This document shows, piece by piece, positions 3 through 10,056 of a stretch of 63,394 nucleotides of DNA; the stretch's first letter is position 1; every line of letters begins with the position of its first letter. Where the stretch lies: NCBI GenBank assembly GCA_038078715.1, contig JBBTSU010000003.1, positions 34,861 through 98,254 of the forward strand, written 5' to 3'. The notes beneath the pieces were generated by a model, which was given only the letters and a program-made list of their open reading frames with translations, ran no database searches and was not told where the DNA came from. This DNA is from Patescibacteria group bacterium. Lineage in GTDB: Bacteria > Patescibacteriota > Minisyncoccia > Phycocordibacterales > Phycocordibacteraceae. The position numbers and the translations under genes were made by a program.

Positions 3-3000
3 CTTTCATACTCAGGCACATTCGGTGCACTTCTTGGCGGTGCGGCAGGAACACTCTCTCTGAATGCGACTGGCGATTGGACGGGGACCTTTGATGGTAT
101 TGAAGGAGCAAGCTTCCTGCGTTCAGATGCTTCAGATTCATATACGTCCGGTACGCTCACCTTTGATGCAGCAACATCGCTTGATCTTAATACCACCGGA
201 CTTTCTATTGCTGACACTGGTGTTGCGTTTGATGGTGCGTCCACCGACTTTGCGTTCACCGGAGACTTCACTGCCAACACAGACGATCTGATCATTGTTA
301 AATCGACAGGGAATGTGGGCATCGGCACGACGACGCCCGGGACGACACTTTCTGTGCAAGGCACCTCGGGACAATTAACACTCAATTCTACCGGAAGCAC
401 TTTCTCGAGGACTGTATATGCTCATGACGGCGCTTCTATCTGGACAACGGGAACGCGTTCGGGAGACGGTAACGACTATCATATATATAGAGAGAGTGGT
501 TCTGGCGATGTCATTGTTGATTCAGGCAACGTCGGTATCGGTACTACGACACCGCTTGCAAAACTTGATGTATATGGGTCATCAGTCGACGGAATAAGAA
601 GTATTTCTACCACCGCGCTTGGAGTTTCTTCCGGAGGTGGGATCTTTGCACAGAACAACGCCTCCTCAACTGCTGCAGATCAACGATTAGGGGGTTTCTT
701 TACTGGAACAAACATCGACGGTGTAAGCTATGCGACAGCTGGCGTGACTGGTTTTTCTGGTGAGTCGTGGACCCCCACAGCTCGTGGTTCGTACTTACGT
801 TTTGAGACAACAGGATTGGGAGGGACTTCTCGATCAGAACGTATGCGTATTACCGCCGATGGTAACGTCGGTATCGGGACGACGACGCCGAATACGAAAC
901 TTTCTCTCTATGGAGCGGGGGTTGGTCTTAATTACTTCAGTACCAGTTTTGCAGGTATTCAGCTTTATAACAGCGGCAACTCGTTCACGCAGATAGGGAC
1001 CGAGTCGACTTCGGGTGGCGCAATCATAACGGGCGGTCTTGCGAACGCATCTATATTCGGCAGCAATGGTGCAAACGCGACTCAGCTCGCAACTCAGAAC
1101 ACTGCACGGCTCACCATAGATTCTTCCGGTAACGTCGGCATCGGTACCACGACGCCATGGGGGCTTCTTTCCGTAAACCCTAATGCACTTGGAACTGGAG
1201 TCCCGTCATTTGTCATCGGCTCCTCGACGGCAACCAGCTTTATCGTTACCAATGCAGGTAACGTCGGTATCGGACAATTAGCACCCACGCAGAGATTGAA
1301 TGTTCGTTCAGCGGCTTCCGCGTCAAACGTTTTCGTGGTCAGTGGTGCAACAAGTAACGGGACGCTTGCGCGCATCTACGATGATTCAGGTGTCGGCATT
1401 CTGTCCGTCTATGCGACGAGTGAAAACGAGACTGTACGTCTGTACGGTAACGGCAGCAGTTATTTGAACGGCGGCAACGTTGGTATTGCGTCAACATCGC
1501 CATTTGGTCTCCTTTCAATCGAGCAGGGTACCGAGACTGCGTCACTGTGGGTTGGTAACACAGGAAGCACGACGCCATCACTCATGGTACGTGGTGTAAA
1601 CGGGAACGGATTCGTCGGTATAGGCAATGCTACCCCAAGCGAAGAATTGCATATCGGCACCAACACCGCTTCACCAACTGCTGATCCAGTTACTCTCTCA
1701 CTTGGTGCCACATACGGGAATAATACTGCGGGCAATGCAGGAAATCTTAAACTCAAATTATTTGATGATGGTACAAATCGTTACGGACTTGGTATGTCGG
1801 GGAGTATGCTGGAGTATCAAGCCGCAGGAGCGCATGCGTGGTTCCAAAGCGGAACCGAGCGGATGCGTATTGCGACAGGAGGCAATGTTGGCATCAGTAC
1901 TACCACTCCCGCCGGGCTACTTTCTATTGGTGGTAACGTCATTATTGGTGCCTCCACCGCAGGTGGCACGAACGGTACCTTGACCTATGGTGGCGTCACA
2001 CTTGCTAACTCTGTGACGGGCACCGGCTCTATGGTGCTTTCTACGTCCCCAGCCCTCACCACACCAAACCTCGGGACCCCATCCGCCGTTACACTTACCA
2101 ATGGTACGGGCCTCCCAATTTCCACGGGTGTCTCAGGTCTCGGCACAGGGGTCGCTACCTTCCTTGCAACACCATCTACCGCAAACTTTGCTGCCGCAGT
2201 AACGGGAGAGACGGGAAGTGGAGCGGTAGTATTTGGGACGGCACCTACACTCACCACCCTTACCGTTTCCTCAGGTGGTGTTGCGGTCACGGGTAACTCT
2301 ACTATCGTAGGAACCCTCGGCTCACTCACCGGCCTCACCTCATCAGGAACCATTACATTCTCCGGACTTACTGCTGCTCGCGCTGTCTGTACGACAACTG
2401 GTGGTGCACTCACTGTGACCTGTGCTTCATCGGATCTCGCATCATCGCTCTCAGATGAAACTGGTACCGGTTCGGTGGTCTTTAGCGCGAGCCCTCAACT
2501 CACGGGCGACGTGCTTCTTTCAACGACCACCAGTAGTGGCTGGCCGCTCACGGTCTTCTCTTCTACTGAGCCACAACTTTCCCTCTCTTCAGGTGCTGGA
2601 GTCTCTCAGTGGGTATTCCGTAATGCGGGAGGTACGCTCTATCTTGCCACGACCACTGTAGCAGGTACGGCAACCAGTACCGTTCCCGCATTCTCTATTG
2701 GTACCTCCAACACCTTCACCACTGGAGGAAACCTTTCAGTTGGTGGCGGTACTGGAAAGATTACCGTCGGTACTATTGACCCGGTCTACAGTATTGATGG
2801 TGTGAACTATGCGACCTATGTTGCGGGTATGATCGGACAGAAAGAAGAGACGACAGGAACAGCGGACATCACCACACCGACCATTGCAACGGACGGCAGT
2901 ACGGGATACTCTCACACGATTACGTTTGACGAAGAGGACGCAGGAAGTGATTTGTGGCTCTTTTCTCGTGCGACGAACATTCGTGAAAACATAGATCGTC

Positions 3001-3893
3001 TCGTCGTACTTCTTTCAGCGGAAGGAAATACCAAGGTGTGGTACACCGTTGACCGTGCAAACAGAGAGGTGCACCTCCTCTCTGATGTGCCGACTCGCGT
3101 GTCGTACCGCATGACAGCACCCCGCTTTGATTTTGTGAACTGGACGAACTACAACCATGATGCAGTGGATGGGTTCCATCCAACCTGGGACGAAGATGAA
3201 GAATACTTTACTGACTCTAACGTTATTTCATTTGGTACCTTTAACCTCATTTCAGGCACCACCACCCTTGCTACGCTCATAGACACAGCGAACGAAGACG
3301 AAGAGTCGCGTCCGTGGACCGCGTCATTAGCTACAGTGAGTCAGGGTCTCAAAGATGCAATGGAAGACCTTCAGAACTCTGTGGTGCATGCGTTTGAAGG
3401 TGTACAGTATTACGCGGATGGTATCTTTAAGCGCATTTTTGCGGGTGAAGTACATACCGACACACTTTGTATTTCTGACGAAGACGGAGAGACGTGCATC
3501 ACCCGGGAACAATTGAAAGCATTGCTTGCGGGAGCAGGAGCTGCACCTGCGGCAACCCCAACTACTGGAGGAAGTGAATCCGATTCTTCAGGCGGTGGGT
3601 CATCAGATGAGACGTCGGATTCCGACCCTGGAGACACGGGTGGCGATACAGATCAGAACACAAACGGAGAGGGGGGTGATACTGGAGACAGCAGCAGCGG
3701 TGAGGTCGGGGGAGATACATCGGGAAATCCTGGAGAAGATTCAAGCGGTGATAGTGGGGTCGGTGGGTCTTCGGGAGGTGATACGGGAGGATCAGACGGA
3801 GGCGGAGATAGCGGCGGAAATACGACCTCAGGCGACAGCTCCGGAGGTGACGCTGGTTCTTCAGGGGGAGATTCAAGTGGCGGTGGAGTGTAA
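3..3893 (+). CDS. Giant low-complexity surface / phage tail-fibre-like repeat protein, 5' partial
   Basis: The frame of ORF 315..3893 is open back to base 3 (LSYSGTFG...DGIEGASFLRSDASD...). It has many GNVGIGTT repeats, a TPNLGTPSAVTLTNGTGLPISTGVSGLGTGVATFLATPS block, a C-terminal IDPVYSIDG..YATY domain, an LCISDEDGETCITREQL motif and a G/S/D-rich tail. Confidence 0.85.
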   Translation, partial: LSYSGTFGALLGGAAGTLSLNATGDWTGTFDGIEGASFLRSDASDSYTSGTLTFDAATSLDLNTTGLSIADTGVAFDGASTDFAFTGDFTANTDDLIIVKSTGNVGIGTTTPGTTLSVQGTSGQLTLNSTGSTFSRTVYAHDGASIWTTGTRSGDGNDYHIYRESGSGDVIVDSGNVGIGTTTPLAKLDVYGSSVDGIRSISTTALGVSSGGGIFAQNNASSTAADQRLGGFFTGTNIDGVSYATAGVTGFSGESWTPTARGSYLRFETTGLGGTSRSERMRITADGNVGIGTTTPNTKLSLYGAGVGLNYFSTSFAGIQLYNSGNSFTQIGTESTSGGAIITGGLANASIFGSNGANATQLATQNTARLTIDSSGNVGIGTTTPWGLLSVNPNALGTGVPSFVIGSSTATSFIVTNAGNVGIGQLAPTQRLNVRSAASASNVFVVSGATSNGTLARIYDDSGVGILSVYATSENETVRLYGNGSSYLNGGNVGIASTSPFGLLSIEQGTETASLWVGNTGSTTPSLMVRGVNGNGFVGIGNATPSEELHIGTNTASPTADPVTLSLGATYGNNTAGNAGNLKLKLFDDGTNRYGLGMSGSMLEYQAAGAHAWFQSGTERMRIATGGNVGISTTTPAGLLSIGGNVIIGASTAGGTNGTLTYGGVTLANSVTGTGSMVLSTSPALTTPNLGTPSAVTLTNGTGLPISTGVSGLGTGVATFLATPSTANFAAAVTGETGSGAVVFGTAPTLTTLTVSSGGVAVTGNSTIVGTLGSLTGLTSSGTITFSGLTAARAVCTTTGGALTVTCASSDLASSLSDETGTGSVVFSASPQLTGDVLLSTTTSSGWPLTVFSSTEPQLSLSSGAGVSQWVFRNAGGTLYLATTTVAGTATSTVPAFSIGTSNTFTTGGNLSVGGGTGKITVGTIDPVYSIDGVNYATYVAGMIGQKEETTGTADITTPTIATDGSTGYSHTITFDEEDAGSDLWLFSRATNIRENIDRLVVLLSAEGNTKVWYTVDRANREVHLLSDVPTRVSYRMTAPRFDFVNWTNYNHDAVDGFHPTWDEDEEYFTDSNVISFGTFNLISGTTTLATLIDTANEDEESRPWTASLATVSQGLKDAMEDLQNSVVHAFEGVQYYADGIFKRIFAGEVHTDTLCISDEDGETCITREQLKALLAGAGAAPAATPTTGGSESDSSGGGSSDETSDSDPGDTGGDTDQNTNGEGGDTGDSSSGEVGGDTSGNPGEDSSGDSGVGGSSGGDTGGSDGGGDSGGNTTSGDSSGGDAGSSGGDSSGGGV

Positions 3894-3959: not shown

Positions 3960-6482
3960 ATGACATCTCGTGTCATCACCATTCTTTTACTATCACTGGT
4001 TTATGTTGTTTCTGTGCCGTCTGCGGTCGCACAGGAGGGATTTCTCTCAGAAACGCTCAAGCGTGGAGATACTGGTGAGCAGGTTCGCGTATTACAGACA
4101 TGGTTTGCACGTGATCCAGAGCTTTATCCGGAAGGGGTAATCAATGGAATATTTGGGCCCGCAACTGAAGCTGCAGTCAAACGTTATCAGGAACGGGCGG
4201 GGATGATTCTTATATTCCCGACGGGTGAGAGCACCTACGGCGTGGTCGGGCCGATGACCAGAGCAAATTTGAATGCTGAATTCTCTATGAATCGTGGTGG
4301 TGTCGCCGTCGTTGAAGGGGGATATGACAACGCGCGTATCTTTGATGGAGACACCTTCGTACCGCTCGCCCCAGCACTAGCAAGTGATGCGGGAGCGAGT
4401 TCGGAGGTTAACGTGTGGGTCTATCCTGTTGCACTTTCTGAGCGTCCCACGCTTCTGCTTAAGAATGAGAGCGGATATGCGGTGGGGTCTCAAGAATCAG
4501 GGAGGATCTATGTTGAAACTTCCACTCATCGCGCGATTACCCGACGCGCATATCTTATGCCGGGCACCTGGCAGCATCTCTCGGTTCGCATCACCGAAGA
4601 TCGTGCCTCCTTCCTCTATGACAACGAAATAGTAGAGACGGTTTCGCTCTCAAGAGTATATTCTTCTTTCTTCAGCATGTTCTTTGATCGACTTGGCAAC
4701 ATGTTTGGTGTGCCGGAGGTCCAGGAACAAAAGCGCAGCGTGTTCACTCTTTTCGGATCATTCTTTAGCACTATATTCGGTATTCCCCAGCAGTCAGAGT
4801 TGCCTGCGCCCACTGTATTTGTGCCCGAGACGACGACGCTCCCTCCTGTGGTCTCCACTACCACATCAGAGTCAGAGACCGTTCCTACGTCTGTGCCGGC
4901 TGTGCCACCTACTATTGGGGGGCCACTTCCTCCACTTGTGACTGCACCTCTCATAAGCACAAGTACCGAGACGACGGCAACCACTACTACCGCAACCACT
5001 ACTACCGCAACCTCTACTGTTCCAACGAAGACGACGTCCGTAACGACGGGGAGTACAGGCGCAAATACCAAACCAGTACTCACCCTTGAGGGCGGTGCCG
5101 CAGTCTCAATAGAGATTGGAAACCCCTATAATGATCCTGGAGTAATCGCACAGGATGCCGAGGAGGGAGATATCTCAAGTGAGGTTGTGGTTGGAGGGGA
5201 AGAAGTCGACCACACTACTCCGGGCGACTATACGATCATCTACAGTGTTGTAGATTCAGGCGGACTTGCGGCAACAGAGATCACACGGGTCGTGACCGTC
5301 TTACCGCCTGATGAAATATCCGAGGACGCACAGGAACCAGACTATCCTCTCACTGCTGCAGGCCAGAGTGTTGCATACAAAGTTTCTTCCGGGACAGGCG
5401 CCGATCCGACATTCGTTTCTATTACTATTGACCCCTTGCATGTGTATGTAGGGCAAACTCAGACCTTTACCGTTAAAGTGTCGTCTCCTGACGGCGTAGA
5501 GTCTGTCACTGCGGTGACGGAGCTCGACAGCACCACGTTAGAGCTTGAACTAGAGAAAATAAGTGAATCGGGCACGACCGCGACATTCGAGACGTCATGG
5601 GTAGTGTATGACACGCACGTGGATACGTACCGTACCGAGTTCACAGCGGTATCAAATTCAGGTTCAGGAAACTCTATGACCATGGCGTGGTCAGACCCAT
5701 GCTCAGGCATTACACAGGGGTCGGCCTCGTCACTCTCGGCCAATTGTACGGTTTCTAATGTGTATGGACTTGACGGGGGTAATCTCACTGTCCCGGGCGG
5801 TATCACCCTGACGATCAATTCGGGAGGCACGTGGGGATGGAACCCAGGTACCACTATTACCGTTGACGGTGCGATTTCAACTGGCACGGGCGGACAACTT
5901 AAGAAAGGGTATCTTTTCTATCAAGACTGTTCGGGGTGTGTGGATACCAATACTATGCACTGGTTCTCGTCGACTCCACAGACTGGGTACACTCGTGCGA
6001 GCACGTATTCCCAAGGGTCGTACTACAGCGAACCTTCGTACTACAGCGAACCTTCGTATTGTTTCGCACCAGAGACCCTCGTGCTCATGGCTGATGGTTC
6101 ACGCAAAGCTATCAGCGAGATCGTGCTCGGCGATCTCGTCATGGGACAAAGTGCAGATGGTACGCGCCGGCCCAATGTAGTCACGAAGCTCTTTGTCCAC
6201 GAGTCTACGGTGACAGGAGAACTATTTGATACTCTGCGTATTAATGACTTGATTACTGCGACACCTGAACATCCAATGATGACGACACGGGGTATCGTTT
6301 CTGCAGGCTCGCTTGTCGTGGGAGACACCCTTATCGGACGTATGGATGAGGTATCAGTGACGACGATAGAGCGTGGTCCTACGCTACCTACGGTCCACAA
6401 CCTAACGGTCTATCCTGATCATACGTATTTCGCCGAAGATTTATTGGTGCATAACAAAGGCATGCACGGATTGCCGCCATGA
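3960..6482 (+). CDS. Secreted multidomain protein: peptidoglycan-binding domain, LamG-like segment, Thr-rich linker, DUF5011/HYR-like Ig domain, C-terminal Hint domain
   Basis: Signal peptide; LKRGDTGEQVRVLQ..GIFGPATEAAVKRYQ (PG_binding_1-like); KPVLTLEG..YNDPGVIAQDAEEGDIS (DUF5011-like); CFAPETLV..TATPEHP..VHNLTV..LLVHNK (Hint). ATG at 3960 preferred over TTG at 3948. Confidence 0.85.
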   Translation: MTSRVITILLLSLVYVVSVPSAVAQEGFLSETLKRGDTGEQVRVLQTWFARDPELYPEGVINGIFGPATEAAVKRYQERAGMILIFPTGESTYGVVGPMTRANLNAEFSMNRGGVAVVEGGYDNARIFDGDTFVPLAPALASDAGASSEVNVWVYPVALSERPTLLLKNESGYAVGSQESGRIYVETSTHRAITRRAYLMPGTWQHLSVRITEDRASFLYDNEIVETVSLSRVYSSFFSMFFDRLGNMFGVPEVQEQKRSVFTLFGSFFSTIFGIPQQSELPAPTVFVPETTTLPPVVSTTTSESETVPTSVPAVPPTIGGPLPPLVTAPLISTSTETTATTTTATTTTATSTVPTKTTSVTTGSTGANTKPVLTLEGGAAVSIEIGNPYNDPGVIAQDAEEGDISSEVVVGGEEVDHTTPGDYTIIYSVVDSGGLAATEITRVVTVLPPDEISEDAQEPDYPLTAAGQSVAYKVSSGTGADPTFVSITIDPLHVYVGQTQTFTVKVSSPDGVESVTAVTELDSTTLELELEKISESGTTATFETSWVVYDTHVDTYRTEFTAVSNSGSGNSMTMAWSDPCSGITQGSASSLSANCTVSNVYGLDGGNLTVPGGITLTINSGGTWGWNPGTTITVDGAISTGTGGQLKKGYLFYQDCSGCVDTNTMHWFSSTPQTGYTRASTYSQGSYYSEPSYYSEPSYCFAPETLVLMADGSRKAISEIVLGDLVMGQSADGTRRPNVVTKLFVHESTVTGELFDTLRINDLITATPEHPMMTTRGIVSAGSLVVGDTLIGRMDEVSVTTIERGPTLPTVHNLTVYPDHTYFAEDLLVHNKGMHGLPP
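6021..6056 (+). repeat. Exact 18-bp tandem duplication encoding YYSEPS x2
   Basis: tactacagcgaaccttcg at 6021-6038 and 6039-6056, just before the Hint Cys codon (6060-6062). Confidence 0.95.
6060..6455 (+). other. Hint (intein-like / BIL-type) autoprocessing domain
   Basis: Block A C-F-A-P-E-T, block B T-P-E-H, block F VHNLTV..HTYF, block G V-H-N, followed by Lys rather than Cys/Ser/Thr. Confidence 0.85.
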
Positions 6483-7732
6483 TTTCGTTGGTTCGTCGGC
6501 TTGATTCTATACATAGATCTCGTCTTTTCCTTATTGTGCTGCTTGTCGTCGTGTGTGGGGTAGTGTCCCTTCTGATTCGATTTGGGGAGCCCCTCTTCTA
6601 TCCTGAGGTAACCGAGCTCTCTTCTTCGTCATGGAGCGCAGACGCATATGCTGGCTACCTTACCGATCTCGCAAAGCGCAAAGGAGCAGTGTATGCGTTC
6701 GCGGTGTTGTACAAAGCGTCGTTTCCATTTGGAATTGACACGCATGTGCTCGGGCATCGCATTGGGTATGTACTGTACGATGAGCGCGGCAGTGAGGCGA
6801 TTCGTTACTGTACAGAGACCTATCGTGATGATGCATGCGTGCATGCGGTCGTCATTCAAGAATACGTCACACAAGGACGTGCCGCGCTTACTACCCTTGC
6901 CGCCGCATGCGAAAGTATCCCGCGCGGCACCTCTGGATATGCCGATTGCTTCCACGGCATTGGGCACGGCATTCTTGCGTACCTTGAATATGATTATGAA
7001 ACGACGATTGTGGAGTGTAAGGCAGTTGGGGAGGCAGCGACGGGAGCGGACCCTATGACGGATCATCAGGCGCAGTTTGTATGGAAGCAGTGTGTAGACG
7101 GGGCGACCATGGAACTTATGCAAGGTCTTCATGACCAAGAGGCGTGGTCTAAGGCCATTCCTACTTATATGCCGGAGGATGATCTGCGGATGCCCTGTAA
7201 CGCATCGTATGTGCCCGCTGAGGTGCGTGGCTCCTGCTACATTTATGTACGACCTCGTATGCTCAGGGCCGCGGGGATTGCAGCAGACGAGTATACGTTT
7301 GATCAGAAGAAATATACGAAGGCACTCGCATACTGTGAGATGATTCCTGAGGAACTAGATCGGAAAACGTGCTACGGAGGATTCGGTATGCAGTTTGTGT
7401 ATTCAGTAAACGGGAATGACAATCGCACCTTTGGAGAACTTTCGCTTCCTGCGCTTACGACGGTCCATGAGCTTTGTGCACTCGCGTCTTTTGAAGGGAG
7501 GAGTGCCTGTATCGCTACTGCGGCAGAAACGATTCTTGGTAGGAGTAGAGATGTTGAGACTGTCAGCACATTTTGTGGTCTCACCGAGGATGCGGTGCTA
7601 CAAGACCGCTGCTACACCGCTGCCATCGGACTCATCAAGCAGTATGTGCCCAATGCCACTGTGTATCCTTTTTGTGCGATCGTTCCTCATACGTATTGGC
7701 TCCTCTGTCAGGAGGCGCTGAATAGTCCCTAA
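6479..7732 (+). CDS. Membrane-anchored His/Cys-rich helical-repeat protein, paralogue 1
   Basis: N-terminal TM; motifs THVLGHRIG, ACVH, CFHGIGHG, CVDGATME; ATGA overlap with the Hint gene. Confidence 0.8.
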   Translation: MISLVRRLDSIHRSRLFLIVLLVVVCGVVSLLIRFGEPLFYPEVTELSSSSWSADAYAGYLTDLAKRKGAVYAFAVLYKASFPFGIDTHVLGHRIGYVLYDERGSEAIRYCTETYRDDACVHAVVIQEYVTQGRAALTTLAAACESIPRGTSGYADCFHGIGHGILAYLEYDYETTIVECKAVGEAATGADPMTDHQAQFVWKQCVDGATMELMQGLHDQEAWSKAIPTYMPEDDLRMPCNASYVPAEVRGSCYIYVRPRMLRAAGIAADEYTFDQKKYTKALAYCEMIPEELDRKTCYGGFGMQFVYSVNGNDNRTFGELSLPALTTVHELCALASFEGRSACIATAAETILGRSRDVETVSTFCGLTEDAVLQDRCYTAAIGLIKQYVPNATVYPFCAIVPHTYWLLCQEALNSP

Positions 7733-7737
7733 GTCGT

Positions 7738-8838
7738 ATGTTGCGCGCTGTATTTTTGATGATTGGGGTGCTTATGATAGTTGGAGCCTTCATACTCCCG
7801 CCGCAGCCAGCGTATGGTCCTTATACGTGGGCTGACCTCATTTCATTCTCGGATTACAGATCACAAAGTGTGCCAGAGATTGTCGTAGACAATAAAGAGA
7901 CACTACGTATGCTCTATCAGCTGGGGATCAAGGAAACCATGCGCAAGGTTGCGCAGGATCCGGCATACGAGCGTGATGACTCCGCCTGTCATGGTGCAGC
8001 GCATGTGGTGGGGCGAATGGCATTTAATCTCATGGGAGTGGATGCACTTGCTGCCTGCACGACGCAGTGTTTTTCAGGCTGCATCCACGGTGCATTGCAA
8101 GGAATGGGTGTAAGAAGCAGCGGGAGTATTGACGCGCTGGTAGATGACATTCGTGTACTTTGTAGTGAACTTCCAACTGTATTCGAGCGCAGCGAGTGTA
8201 TTCACGGTGCAGGACATGGCTTACTACTCTTTGCAAACTATGAGCGTGATGATGCGCTTGCAGCGTGCCGACTTCTAAGGACGCGAGAGGATATCAACGA
8301 TTGTTACACCGGGGTGTTTATGGAGAACCTCATCGGAGACGGCAGTGAGGAGCGATTCACTGATGATTTGCACTACCCATGTAATGAGTATAAGGATCCA
8401 GCAGTGGTAGAGGCTTGTTATCGACTTCAGCCAAGTAGATTCATTGAGGCTCATGGCAACGTTACTGAGGCACGCGCAGAATGCATGCGTGCACCTGCAC
8501 AGGCTGCCTGCTTCATGCGTCTGGGACAGCTCTCGGGTGCAGATACCGAGAACCCGCCCGCTGCCACTGAAGCGTTTTGCGCGACAGTTCCTCTTCAATT
8601 CTATGACGACTGCATCCTTGGTGGGTTTCGCCAAGTCATTCGTGTCAACGGTATCGATACTACTGGCACGGCAGCTGGATTCTGTCGTGCACTTACCAAT
8701 CCAGAAGGGAAGCGTCTGTGCTATGAACAATATGCCGAAGAATTGCCAGATCTCTTCAACGATCGTGAGACACAGCATTCACTCTGTGCGCTCTTTGAAG
8801 CACCTTACGATGTATCCTGTCTCGCTCAGAATGACTAA
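7738..8838 (+). CDS. His/Cys-rich protein, paralogue 2
   Basis: N-terminal hydrophobic segment; CHGAAHVVG, CFSGCIHG, CIHGAGHG, CYTGVFME. Confidence 0.8.
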   Translation: MLRAVFLMIGVLMIVGAFILPPQPAYGPYTWADLISFSDYRSQSVPEIVVDNKETLRMLYQLGIKETMRKVAQDPAYERDDSACHGAAHVVGRMAFNLMGVDALAACTTQCFSGCIHGALQGMGVRSSGSIDALVDDIRVLCSELPTVFERSECIHGAGHGLLLFANYERDDALAACRLLRTREDINDCYTGVFMENLIGDGSEERFTDDLHYPCNEYKDPAVVEACYRLQPSRFIEAHGNVTEARAECMRAPAQAACFMRLGQLSGADTENPPAATEAFCATVPLQFYDDCILGGFRQVIRVNGIDTTGTAAGFCRALTNPEGKRLCYEQYAEELPDLFNDRETQHSLCALFEAPYDVSCLAQND

Positions 8839-8868
8839 GTGGCAACAATAGGTGCCTAAGGCTACAAT

Positions 8869-10053
8869 TTGACTATGCGCATCTTGCTCATTCTCGCTGG
8901 ACTCATGTTGGGGGTCGCGGTCCTCATGACCGTGAATTCCTCGTCAGTTTCATATCCAGAAGTGCGTGAACTTGCGCAACATGACACGGACTCTTTCCAA
9001 GAACTCTCTACGTATTTTCGGAAACTCGCAGAGCTAAAGGGTGCACCCTATGCATTTGAAGTGCTCATGCGTGCGCCGCTTCCTCCAGATACTGATCCGC
9101 ATCTGCTGGGACATATTATTGGTGATGTACTCTACGCGCAGAAGGGGATAGATGGCATTGCGTTGTGTACGGATGATTTTCGCAATGCCTGTTCGCACTC
9201 GGTAGTGATTGGGATCCTCACTGAGCATGGCGAAGGATCACTCCCTCTTGTCGCGGAAACCTGTCGTCAGGCACCTGGGGGAACAGGCGCGTACACGATG
9301 TGTTATCACGGTCTTGGACATGGGGTGCTTGCCTATGTCGGCTACGATCTTGAGCGCGCTGTCGCCATGTGCAAACTCACCGGGACGATAGAATACCGCG
9401 ACCAAGAATATACGGAATGTGTGGGCGGGACGATTATGGAGATGATTGCGGGCATTCACGATCCACTCGCATGGGAACAGCAAGTTACGAAGTATTTTAA
9501 GGATGATGATCCGCTGTATCCGTGTGATGCGTCATTCATGCCAGAGGTGGCTCGTGAACGATGTTATACCTATCTGACGCCCCATTTGTTTACGGCAGCA
9601 GACCTTACTCCTTCAGGTGCTGGTCCCCATGACTATCGGAACGCCTTTGCATTCTGTGATGCGATTCCTCTTCGTCGTACAGACTTGCGTGAGGCGTGCA
9701 ATGGCGGTTTTGGTAAGGAGTTTGTTGCACTTGTGAAAGATCGCGATATTCGCACCATCGGTACCATGGACGAGGCGAGCGTGAAAAACGTTCGTGCCTG
9801 GTGCGCGCATGCAGGGAGTGAAGAGGGAGAAGCAGCTTGCGCGCGCCATGCACTCGCGTCTCTTTTCTGGGGAGGGGAGAGTGAGCCCGACGCGGCGTTC
9901 CTTTTCTGTGAAGTGGCAGAGGGGACGTCACAGACGCGCTGCTATCAGGAACTTAGTGGACACATCGCCTACTATCTTTCCGGTACGCTCTATGGGCAAA
10001 CGCTCTGCGCGCGGCTGCCGGAGGCGTTCCAGAAACCGTGCGGTATCCTCTAG
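8869..10053 (+). CDS. His/Cys-rich protein, paralogue 3 (closest to paralogue 1)
   Basis: PHLLGHIIG, ACSH, CYHGLGHG, CVGGTIME; shares the YPEV.EL N-terminal segment with paralogue 1. Confidence 0.8.
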   Translation: MTMRILLILAGLMLGVAVLMTVNSSSVSYPEVRELAQHDTDSFQELSTYFRKLAELKGAPYAFEVLMRAPLPPDTDPHLLGHIIGDVLYAQKGIDGIALCTDDFRNACSHSVVIGILTEHGEGSLPLVAETCRQAPGGTGAYTMCYHGLGHGVLAYVGYDLERAVAMCKLTGTIEYRDQEYTECVGGTIMEMIAGIHDPLAWEQQVTKYFKDDDPLYPCDASFMPEVARERCYTYLTPHLFTAADLTPSGAGPHDYRNAFAFCDAIPLRRTDLREACNGGFGKEFVALVKDRDIRTIGTMDEASVKNVRAWCAHAGSEEGEAACARHALASLFWGGESEPDAAFLFCEVAEGTSQTRCYQELSGHIAYYLSGTLYGQTLCARLPEAFQKPCGIL

Positions 10054-10056
10054 AAT

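Follow-up and report, generated by a model that had tools for sequence, protein, structure and literature searches.

The stretch of DNA analysed here (the window) comprises 63,394 nucleotides of contig JBBTSU010000003.1 from the genome of a Patescibacteria group bacterium (GCA_038078715.1), and carries near its start a plus-strand gene (3960..6482, stop included) for an 840-residue surface protein, P0001. The open reading frame (ORF) has full-length orthologues at 46-54% identity, and its product ends in a Hint domain resembling the bacterial intein-like (BIL) domains (residues 701-832, 132 amino acids; 6060..6455), as identified by Pfam, by phmmer against PDB sequences, and by an AlphaFold2 model searched with Foldseek. 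Direct reading of the plus strand places the first residue of the Hint, Cys701 (Cys1), in the TGT codon at 6060-6062, block B (TPEH, residues 768-771) at 6261-6272, the terminal His-Asn (residues 831-832, CAT AAC) at 6450-6455 and the following (+1) residue, Lys833 (AAA), at 6456-6458. The C-extein is the tail KGMHGLPP (6456..6479), which is conserved in the orthologues P0003, P0004 and P0005, and the TGA stop codon follows at 6480-6482. A preliminary description of the locus had pointed to Cys1, a TxxH motif, His-Asn, the lysine at +1 and the eight-residue tail, and the letters agree with it at each of these points.

The remainder of P0001, encoded in order on the plus strand, has the layout expected of a secreted, peptidoglycan-binding protein, as the preliminary description had also proposed. 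A Sec-type signal peptide, MTSRVITILLLSLVYVVSVPSAVA (3960..4031), with a predicted cut after A-V-A, was called by reading the translation, and orthologues have equivalent hydrophobic N-termini in the alignment. Next come a PG_binding_1 domain (residues 38-82; 4071..4205; Pfam PF01471, E 5e-7) and a LamG/concanavalin-like region with approximate bounds 4290..4670, placed from PF13385 (Laminin_G_3) matches in the orthologues P0003, P0004 and P0006; on the window protein itself this match falls below significance in the Pfam scan. A Thr/Pro-rich linker, in which Tandem Repeats Finder detects a 15-bp tandem repeat (4977-5018; 2.8 copies, 96% match) coding for a TTATT stretch, leads into a Bact_surface_Ig-like domain (DUF5011; residues 374-447; 5079..5300; PF16403, E 1.9e-17). 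Residues 455-655 (5322..5924) form a family-specific conserved module, delimited by invariant alignment columns and the secondary structure of the AlphaFold2 model, in which an Ig-like sandwich passes into a run of short β strands and then KKGYLFY at its end. From there on the protein is variable. The C-terminal cassette starts with a linker and a Tyr-rich repeat, SYYSEPSYYSEPSY (5925..6059), recognised from the sequence and with Tandem Repeats Finder and disordered in the model; an exact 18-bp tandem repeat (6018-6058; 2.3 copies, 100% match) codes for SYYSEP and abuts the Cys1 codon. Across orthologues the repeat ranges from 2 to ~18 units of (G/S)xYY(x)(Q/E), for example GYYYGQ or SAYYAQ, and this Tyr/Gly/Gln low-complexity end expands and contracts quickly.

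The assignment of the Hint rests on several kinds of comparison. The Pfam model PT-HINT (PF07591) matches residues 707-833 with E 4.4e-8 and a score of 33.9 bits, above the gathering threshold of 27.7, and Hom_end_hint, Hint, Vint and Intein_splicing match the same residues more weakly; P0001 gave no Pfam match to a homing-endonuclease domain. Among PDB sequences, phmmer returned the PT-HINT structure 8w20 (E 2.6e-7), the C. thermocellum BIL 2lwy (E 2.9e-5) and the hedgehog entry 6tyy. An AlphaFold2 model of residues 455-840, with 12 orthologues as input, had a mean predicted local distance difference test (pLDDT) score of 70.5; its Hint part adopts a Hint fold (pLDDT 72-88) and its tail is disordered (pLDDT about 30). 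Tetrahymena BIL2 (6y75/6tmm) was the top Foldseek match (E 1.6e-9; template modelling (TM) score 0.73-0.75 on the target; 26% identity), followed by DnaB inteins and hedgehog, with 1at0 among the fold matches (TM 0.70-0.75). The features of the HINT superfamily are thus present, namely the fold, the N-terminal nucleophile, the block-B His, and blocks F and G, with C701, H771, H831 and N832 in place.

Across 13 Hints of the family, which are 41-94% identical, Cys1, the block-B His and His-Asn show no substitution; the block-B Thr is T or R, Arg occurring in several orthologues. The ratio of nonsynonymous to synonymous substitution rates (dN/dS) of the Hint is 0.10 at a dS of 0.31 for L018 versus L006, in which the N-terminal part gives 0.17, and 0.04 for L019 versus L002, so that the Hint is under purifying selection. 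The claim of an intact Hint with no nucleophile at +1 is therefore upheld by the Pfam and PDB matches and by the invariant residues. Being complete, with intact catalytic residues, the domain looks active, and it is very probably a functional autoprocessing module of some kind. It is the sole Hint found in a scan of the window genome (658 kb, 17 contigs).

The family was gathered by a word-index search with the Hint, a genome scan, and a search with the middle module (residues 455-655). It includes 16 distinct Hint-bearing members, all of which (16/16) have 6-11 residues after His-Asn; the named relatives all come from metagenome-assembled genomes of Candidatus Saccharibacteria or Patescibacteria. 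The tails fall into KG[MW]HG[LV]PP, KGGDIP, AKG[DE]IP and [FM]KGHCTFC, together with IKQQCDFC, AKIQCDFC, IKTQCDFC, KSGFFFSQAIP, KQCTSCPLP, KLHQNVNPP and KSGHQNVNPP, so that the +1 residue is K, F, M, I or A and never Cys, Ser or Thr. Because every Hint-bearing member ends this close to His-Asn, the gene in the window is not a truncation. Homologues with a long C-terminal domain, the case that would have told against the preliminary description, number 0 of the 16, and its statement that no toxin domain follows the Hint holds for the eight residues here and for the 6-11 elsewhere. The tails are also at least as conserved as the Hints that precede them: KGMHGLPP is identical at 8/8 positions between the window protein and P0004 though their Hints are 64% identical, and [FM]KGHCTFC is identical at 7/8 positions between L006 and L007 though their Hints are 62% identical.

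An order-wide search of 301 genomes with the whole protein returned almost only matches to the PG_binding or Ig domains; true members were confined to the window genome (P0001 and a Hint-less paralogue on contig C1) and one other genome. The distribution of the family within the order is patchy, and these surface proteins are confined to part of the Saccharibacteria.

At least ten family members (L009, L010/P0192, L012, L013a, L015, P0189, P0195, P0196, P0205 and P0206) have the same body and Tyr-rich repeat with no Hint, and end right after the repeat. Behind the Hint-less genes that were checked (L009, L010, L012, L013a and L015) no decayed Hint was found: the downstream space is 27-62 nt in L009, L010 and L013a, the genes overlap in L015, and the gap in L012 is filled by two minus-strand genes. 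When the Hints were removed in silico and the ends right-justified, L015 ...YFEASY-HCSIC aligned with L007 ...YETMYL^MKG-HCTFC, and L010 ...FESGY-GGFQIFEFIP with L008 ...YAEGGY^KS-GFFFSQAIP (^, Hint removed). As background, CxxC or CxxxC in the last nine residues occurs in 5/635 ORFs of the window genome (0.8%), and an [IL]P(P) end in 10/635 (1.6%). Since Hint-less ends resemble the tails that follow Hints, the Hint is an insert ahead of an ancestral tail, and since nothing in Hint-less ends corresponds to the Lys (or x-Lys) after His-Asn, this Lys is part of the inserted module. The Hint with its own Lys, at +1 or +2, is thus an optional insert, always at one and the same site between the Tyr repeat and the ancestral tail. 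The idea that the eight-residue tail is a vestige did not survive these comparisons, given its conservation and its likeness to Hint-less ends.

On a host tree built from the N-terminal 650-790 residues, Hint-less members are scattered and well-supported branches force at least three changes of state; P0006, with a Hint, and L010, with none, are sisters with 100/100 support. The family Hints themselves are monophyletic (87/87; recovered in 84% of bootstrap trees), to the exclusion of Hints from other protein families, and a single acquisition would therefore suffice. Recent horizontal import of Hint-coding DNA was considered and rejected, because the G+C content is 0.50-0.52 across 6000-6500, the same as in the neighbouring DNA, and the family Hints are one clade. 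The N-part and the Hint give conflicting trees. Identity between P0005 and P0007 is 82% for the N-part and 45% for the Hint; between P0005 and P0003 it is 62% for the N-part and 84% for the Hint. Recombination between lineages swaps the whole C-terminal cassette (linker, Tyr repeat, Hint and tail), with a break at KGYLFY, and can also move or remove the Hint.

In a third C-terminal variant the Tyr repeat gives way to a β domain, and the protein closes with C-x(2-6)-C, in many cases with a P behind it (CEFNCP, CGDIPCP, CEYECP, CDPVCS). It was seen in L014, the contig C1 paralogue, P0194, P0198, P0199 and P0201-P0203. The contig C1 paralogue, the Hint-less copy in the window genome, lies at a contig edge (L017:196-1560) and ends in GGGGCEFNCP after KKGYLFY and the β domain.

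A phmmer search with residues 690-840 against 1.84 billion representative sequences gave 6832 matches with E up to 1e-3, and the counts that follow come from the best 150 of these together with the first search set, rescanned. Cys occupies position 1 in 336/340 Hints, and His-Asn closes 286/303 complete Hint C-ends. The residue after His-Asn is Lys in 216 of these 286 (76%) and Cys, Ser or Thr in 17 (6%), and HNKG occurs 153 times among the rescanned ends. At most 12 residues come after the last Hint in 31 of 132 proteins, the short ends being, for example, KQQQ, KLI, KKP, KIPN, K or nothing, so that a terminal Hint is not unique to P0001. The N-terminal partners of terminal Hints are diverse (PKD, TadE-like and MopE-like motifs among them) and mostly unrecognised. 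Many proteins of the subclade are tandem arrays of Hints joined HN-KG(G)(G)-CF; in P0024, P0027, P0028, P0037, P0038 and others, three to five tandem Hints are followed by a Gly-rich region of ~400-450 residues. A cluster look-up gave no useful names for these proteins, and we found no paper describing a Hint subclade in which Lys is conserved after His-Asn. A large, apparently undescribed subclade, and not P0001 alone, is thus marked by Lys at +1 and by Hints close to the C-terminus.

Downstream, the TGA stop overlaps the ATG of the next gene (6479-6481) in an ATGA at 6479..6482, as expected from the translational coupling described earlier. Five tandem paralogues encoding a membrane-anchored, Cys/His-rich, all-α protein follow on the plus strand (6479..12227), the first at 6479-7732; the partners are 326-417 residues long. 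They share 14 invariant Cys and the invariant residues H93, H122, H159, H163 and M211 (numbering of the first paralogue), match no Pfam or NCBIfam family, and give an all-α AlphaFold2 model (pLDDT 91.4) with no significant fold match in the PDB (best E 0.01, TM ≤0.25). Between two and seven such paralogues follow every family locus with enough downstream sequence, Hint-bearing or Hint-less, and the overlap with the first of them is also 4 nt in L003 and L019 and is 1 nt in L006, L007 and L018. The preliminary description had tied the terminal Hint to the His/Cys genes as features to be surveyed together in homologues; the link to the His/Cys genes is kept in all checkable loci, but it is independent of the Hint, which is optional. 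Frameshifting or read-through that would fuse the next gene as a long C-extein was rejected, the junction being a 4-nt or 1-nt overlap or a 20-55-nt gap and the next protein having its own N-terminal membrane anchor.

A scan for promoters and terminators around the surface-protein gene gave no signal beyond that expected from shuffled sequence, and the Hint gene is not separated from its downstream neighbour by a terminator. Beyond the His/Cys cluster, on the minus strand (12221-15044), lie a sulfatase-family gene (PF00884, E 1.8e-35) and a gene for a 491-residue multi-pass membrane protein whose orthologues have a spermine-synthase-like Pfam match; the two keep their place after the cluster, on the other strand, in the close relatives L002 and L003. 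Upstream, positions 3-3893 encode a protein of more than 1296 residues in which GNVGIGTTTP-like repeats are numerous and a long, acidic tail is rich in Gly, Ser and Asp; the Pfam scan gave no match for it, and giant proteins of this kind also lie ahead of the family gene in L005, L007, L008, L009 and L010. The L013 contig, from a Saccharibacteria metagenome-assembled genome, has two near-identical Hint-less family genes (4043-6673 and 8863-11493), 2 kb apart with two His/Cys genes between them, which looks like a recent duplication of the module.

How the Hint might act can be approached from the chemistry of its relatives. According to two papers, A-type BIL domains combine an N-terminal thioester with cyclisation of the terminal Asn and can ligate their flanks, and BIL domains with no +1 nucleophile mostly cleave, a single mutation turning them into efficient splicers (PMC7664689, PMC7765530). 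Tetrahymena BIL2 joins the C-terminus of its N-extein to the ε-amine of a lysine through an isopeptide bond (PMC8616854, section 2.4). The reading of P0001 that we favour, with a probability of roughly 0.5, is that what the Hint mainly does in nature is to excise itself after export and rejoin the tail. Once exported by the Sec pathway, it would fold and form a thioester at Tyr700-Cys701 by an N-S acyl shift; Asn832 would cyclise and cut the Asn832-Lys833 bond; the Hint would leave; and attack of an amine on the Cys1 thioester, either the new α-amine or the ε-amine of Lys, would join the Tyr-rich end to the tail, with plain N- and C-cleavage as side products. Nucleophile-free splicing by aminolysis has reportedly been demonstrated by experiment for the C. 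thermocellum BIL (2LWY, the structure of Aranko 2013), the aminolysis mechanism being attributed to Dassa 2004, and the BIL cleavage and splicing results are said by citing papers to originate in Amitai 2003, Dassa 2004 and Aranko 2013. The tail is probably meant to stay on the mature protein, because it is kept by selection, it mirrors Hint-less ends, and His-Asn is retained; a tail that stays would in turn require amine attack on the thioester. The placement of Lys at +1 or +2 hints at a side-chain role rather than an α-amine role. Read this way, the Hint would be a passenger that removes itself, or would provide a maturation step under certain conditions, and would not serve to release a toxin.

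The alternatives differ in what becomes of the thioester and the tail. In one, which we consider a tentative though sizeable possibility, the domain would only cleave: cuts at Tyr700-Cys701, and possibly at Asn832-Lys833, would be resolved by water, and the Hint and octapeptide would be discarded. The mature protein would then end in the Tyr-rich repeat, and the Hint would be a removable cap, for example masking a sticky Tyr-rich end during export. This agrees with the predominance of N- and C-cleaved products of BIL domains in vitro (PMC7664689; PMC7765530), with the 0-4-residue tails of some subclade members (...VHN|K, ...VHN|KLI, ...VHN), in which rejoining hardly matters, and with Hint-less orthologues that end almost at the repeat (L009 ...YYSQVMYK, P0195 ...QTSYK). 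However, a discarded tail would hardly be more conserved than the Hint or mirror Hint-less ends, including the family-wide terminal CxxC(P), and the invariant His-Asn would be superfluous for N-cleavage alone. His-Asn weighs likewise on the proposal of the preliminary description that the Hint activates the C-terminus as in Hedgehog, an external nucleophile attacking the Cys1 thioester for enzyme-free covalent anchoring, since Hints that act at the N-junction only (Hedgehog-type, B-type BIL) have lost this pair. The nucleophile could be a peptidoglycan stem-peptide amine, an envelope polymer, a lysine of a host protein or a small molecule, and the setting is suggestive: the protein is predicted to be secreted and to bind peptidoglycan, Saccharibacteria live attached to host bacteria (PMC12206443), and BIL2, the best fold match, moves its N-extein onto the lysines of other proteins without ATP (PMC8616854). 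On the other hand, no adduct-recognition region follows the Hint, and Hint-less orthologues keep the architecture and operon, so that anchoring would be unneeded for the core function. The genome also encodes its own sortase for wall anchoring, and the notion that the Hint substitutes for a missing sortase was rejected on that ground. One-sided activation fits less well than a self-removing insert, and we regard it as unlikely. Because Hint-less orthologues keep the same operon, any Hint-mediated attachment is dispensable for the protein's core role.

A catalytically silent Hint, serving as a structural or binding module in a precursor that is itself the working form, its side-by-side termini keeping the tail near the Tyr-rich end, seems improbable. 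Purifying selection is in itself no proof of catalysis, and the block-B Thr does vary between T and R; but Cys1, the block-B His and His-Asn do not vary in 13 Hints that share as little as 41% identity, and the rescanned set has Cys1 in 336/340 and His-Asn in 286/303, the pattern expected for catalysis, not binding. Descent from a polymorphic toxin, with a PT-HINT once ahead of a toxin domain that has since been deleted, is hardly credible, even though no Pfam model fits better than PT-HINT and lineages exchange the C-terminal cassette by recombination, much as happens at polymorphic toxin loci. None of the 16 Hint-bearing members extends more than 11 residues past His-Asn, over divergence down to ~42% identity; the tail is conserved; and what lies downstream, in Hint-bearing and Hint-less loci alike, is His/Cys paralogues, not immunity genes or orphan toxin cassettes. 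A truncated polymorphic toxin was rejected on the same homologue survey and downstream gene content.

Several points weigh against excision with rejoining itself. Every processing step of P0001 is inferred. BIL domains in vitro yield mainly cleaved rather than ligated products (PMC7664689), and rejoining of the tail may therefore be minor. Purifying selection and the invariant Cys, His and Asn would also fit one-sided cleavage combined with a structural requirement for the C-terminal strand, several orthologues have Arg where the block-B Thr would stand, and a model tail that is disordered, at pLDDT about 30, gives no geometric support for attack by Lys. The likeness of the tails to Hint-less ends rests on motifs of 5-10 residues in related, non-independent sequences, and several tails (KGMHGLPP, ...HQNVNPP) match no Hint-less end.

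A more far-reaching idea, in our view doubtful, is that His-Asn-Lys Hints, thousands of them in many secreted proteins of uncultured bacteria, are enzyme-free extracellular isopeptide ligases, or pass their thioester to a host amine. The Lys at +1 or +2 would be a built-in acceptor, its ε-amine attacking the Cys1 thioester before Asn cyclisation frees the Hint, so that the C-terminus of the N-extein would be joined to the tail through the Lys side chain in a branched splice. A metal-ligand-like tail (M-H here; H-C-x-x-C in relatives) would thereby be hung on the Tyr-rich end, near the five His/Cys partners; in the other version, an amine on the host cell, from a lysine or a stem peptide, would take over the thioester.

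Whichever chemistry operates, the family offers a natural with/without comparison, in which Hint-less orthologues show the finished C-terminus to be expected. If the Hint removes itself and restores the tail, the product should have a single, exactly predictable mass and a single junction peptide (...SYYSEPSY + KGMHGLPP). The chemistry of BIL domains was shown in vitro about two decades ago and their natural role is poorly understood; the Hint-less orthologues make the question of BIL products in vivo directly testable. The conserved Lys after His-Asn is a candidate for a catalytic or acceptor role in a very large subclade, and if it were the nucleophile, these Hints would be small self-contained ligation modules working outside the cell, of interest for protein engineering. 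We found no paper on Hint domains in surface proteins of Saccharibacteria or of Patescibacteria (the candidate phyla radiation, CPR). The locus also outlines a lineage-specific surface module of Saccharibacteria, in which a peptidoglycan-binding protein with a recombining Tyr-rich end is paired with five Cys/His-rich membrane proteins.

Among known systems, class 1 mini-inteins share with the P0001 Hint a fixed site in an orthologous protein, insert-free orthologues, a conserved C-extein, and blocks A, B, F and G. Unlike them, P0001 has Lys rather than Cys, Ser or Thr at +1, is a fast-evolving surface protein rather than a replication or repair enzyme, takes its insert in a low-complexity end rather than an active site, and has no endonuclease or trace of one. 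Hedgehog (Hog) domains likewise stand at the C-terminal end of a secreted protein, with a Cys1 thioester, and 6tyy and 1at0 are among the matches; but they lack the terminal His-Asn and have a sterol- or adduct-recognition region, in place of which P0001 has His-Asn and eight residues. PT-HINT domains (PF07591; UmbC 8W20, Rhs, MafB) provide the best Pfam model and the best PDB sequence match and also lie in the C-terminal variable cassette of secreted proteins, but no toxin domain or immunity gene follows the Hint of P0001, and its tails are 6-11 residues long family-wide.

The closest structural match, BIL2 from the Tetrahymena thermophila BUBL1 locus (6Y75/6TMM; Chiarini, Ilari et al.), similarly has no +1 nucleophile, and its joining to a lysine ε-amine (PMC8616854) exemplifies a part that the conserved Lys of P0001 could play. 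BIL2 differs in being eukaryotic, cytoplasmic and flanked by ubiquitin-like domains, and in that its acceptor lysine belongs to a folded C-extein or to a different protein instead of an eight-residue tail; it is activated by Zn through two His residues. With A-type BILs, P0001 shares a mini-Hint of ~130 residues with Cys1, the block-B His and a C-terminal His-Asn, no +1 nucleophile and no homing endonuclease, a place in the variable region of a secreted bacterial protein, and a direct sequence match (2lwy, E 2.9e-5); the N- and C-cleavage and aminolysis splicing known for A-type BILs are the chemistry proposed here. By sequence the PT-HINT 8w20 outscores 2lwy, the only A-type BIL compared, and by fold the best match is BIL2. 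Unlike A-type BILs, the Hint of P0001 is part of a subclade in which His-Asn is followed by a conserved Lys (76% in the rescanned set), stands eight residues from the C-terminus, and is present or absent among orthologues at a fixed site with a conserved C-extein. The last pattern is typical of true inteins, and we found no documentation of it for BILs in the literature. Taken together, the Hint of P0001 most likely works like an A-type BIL, as a BIL-type domain set apart from those described by its conserved Lys, its near-terminal position and its intein-like presence and absence.

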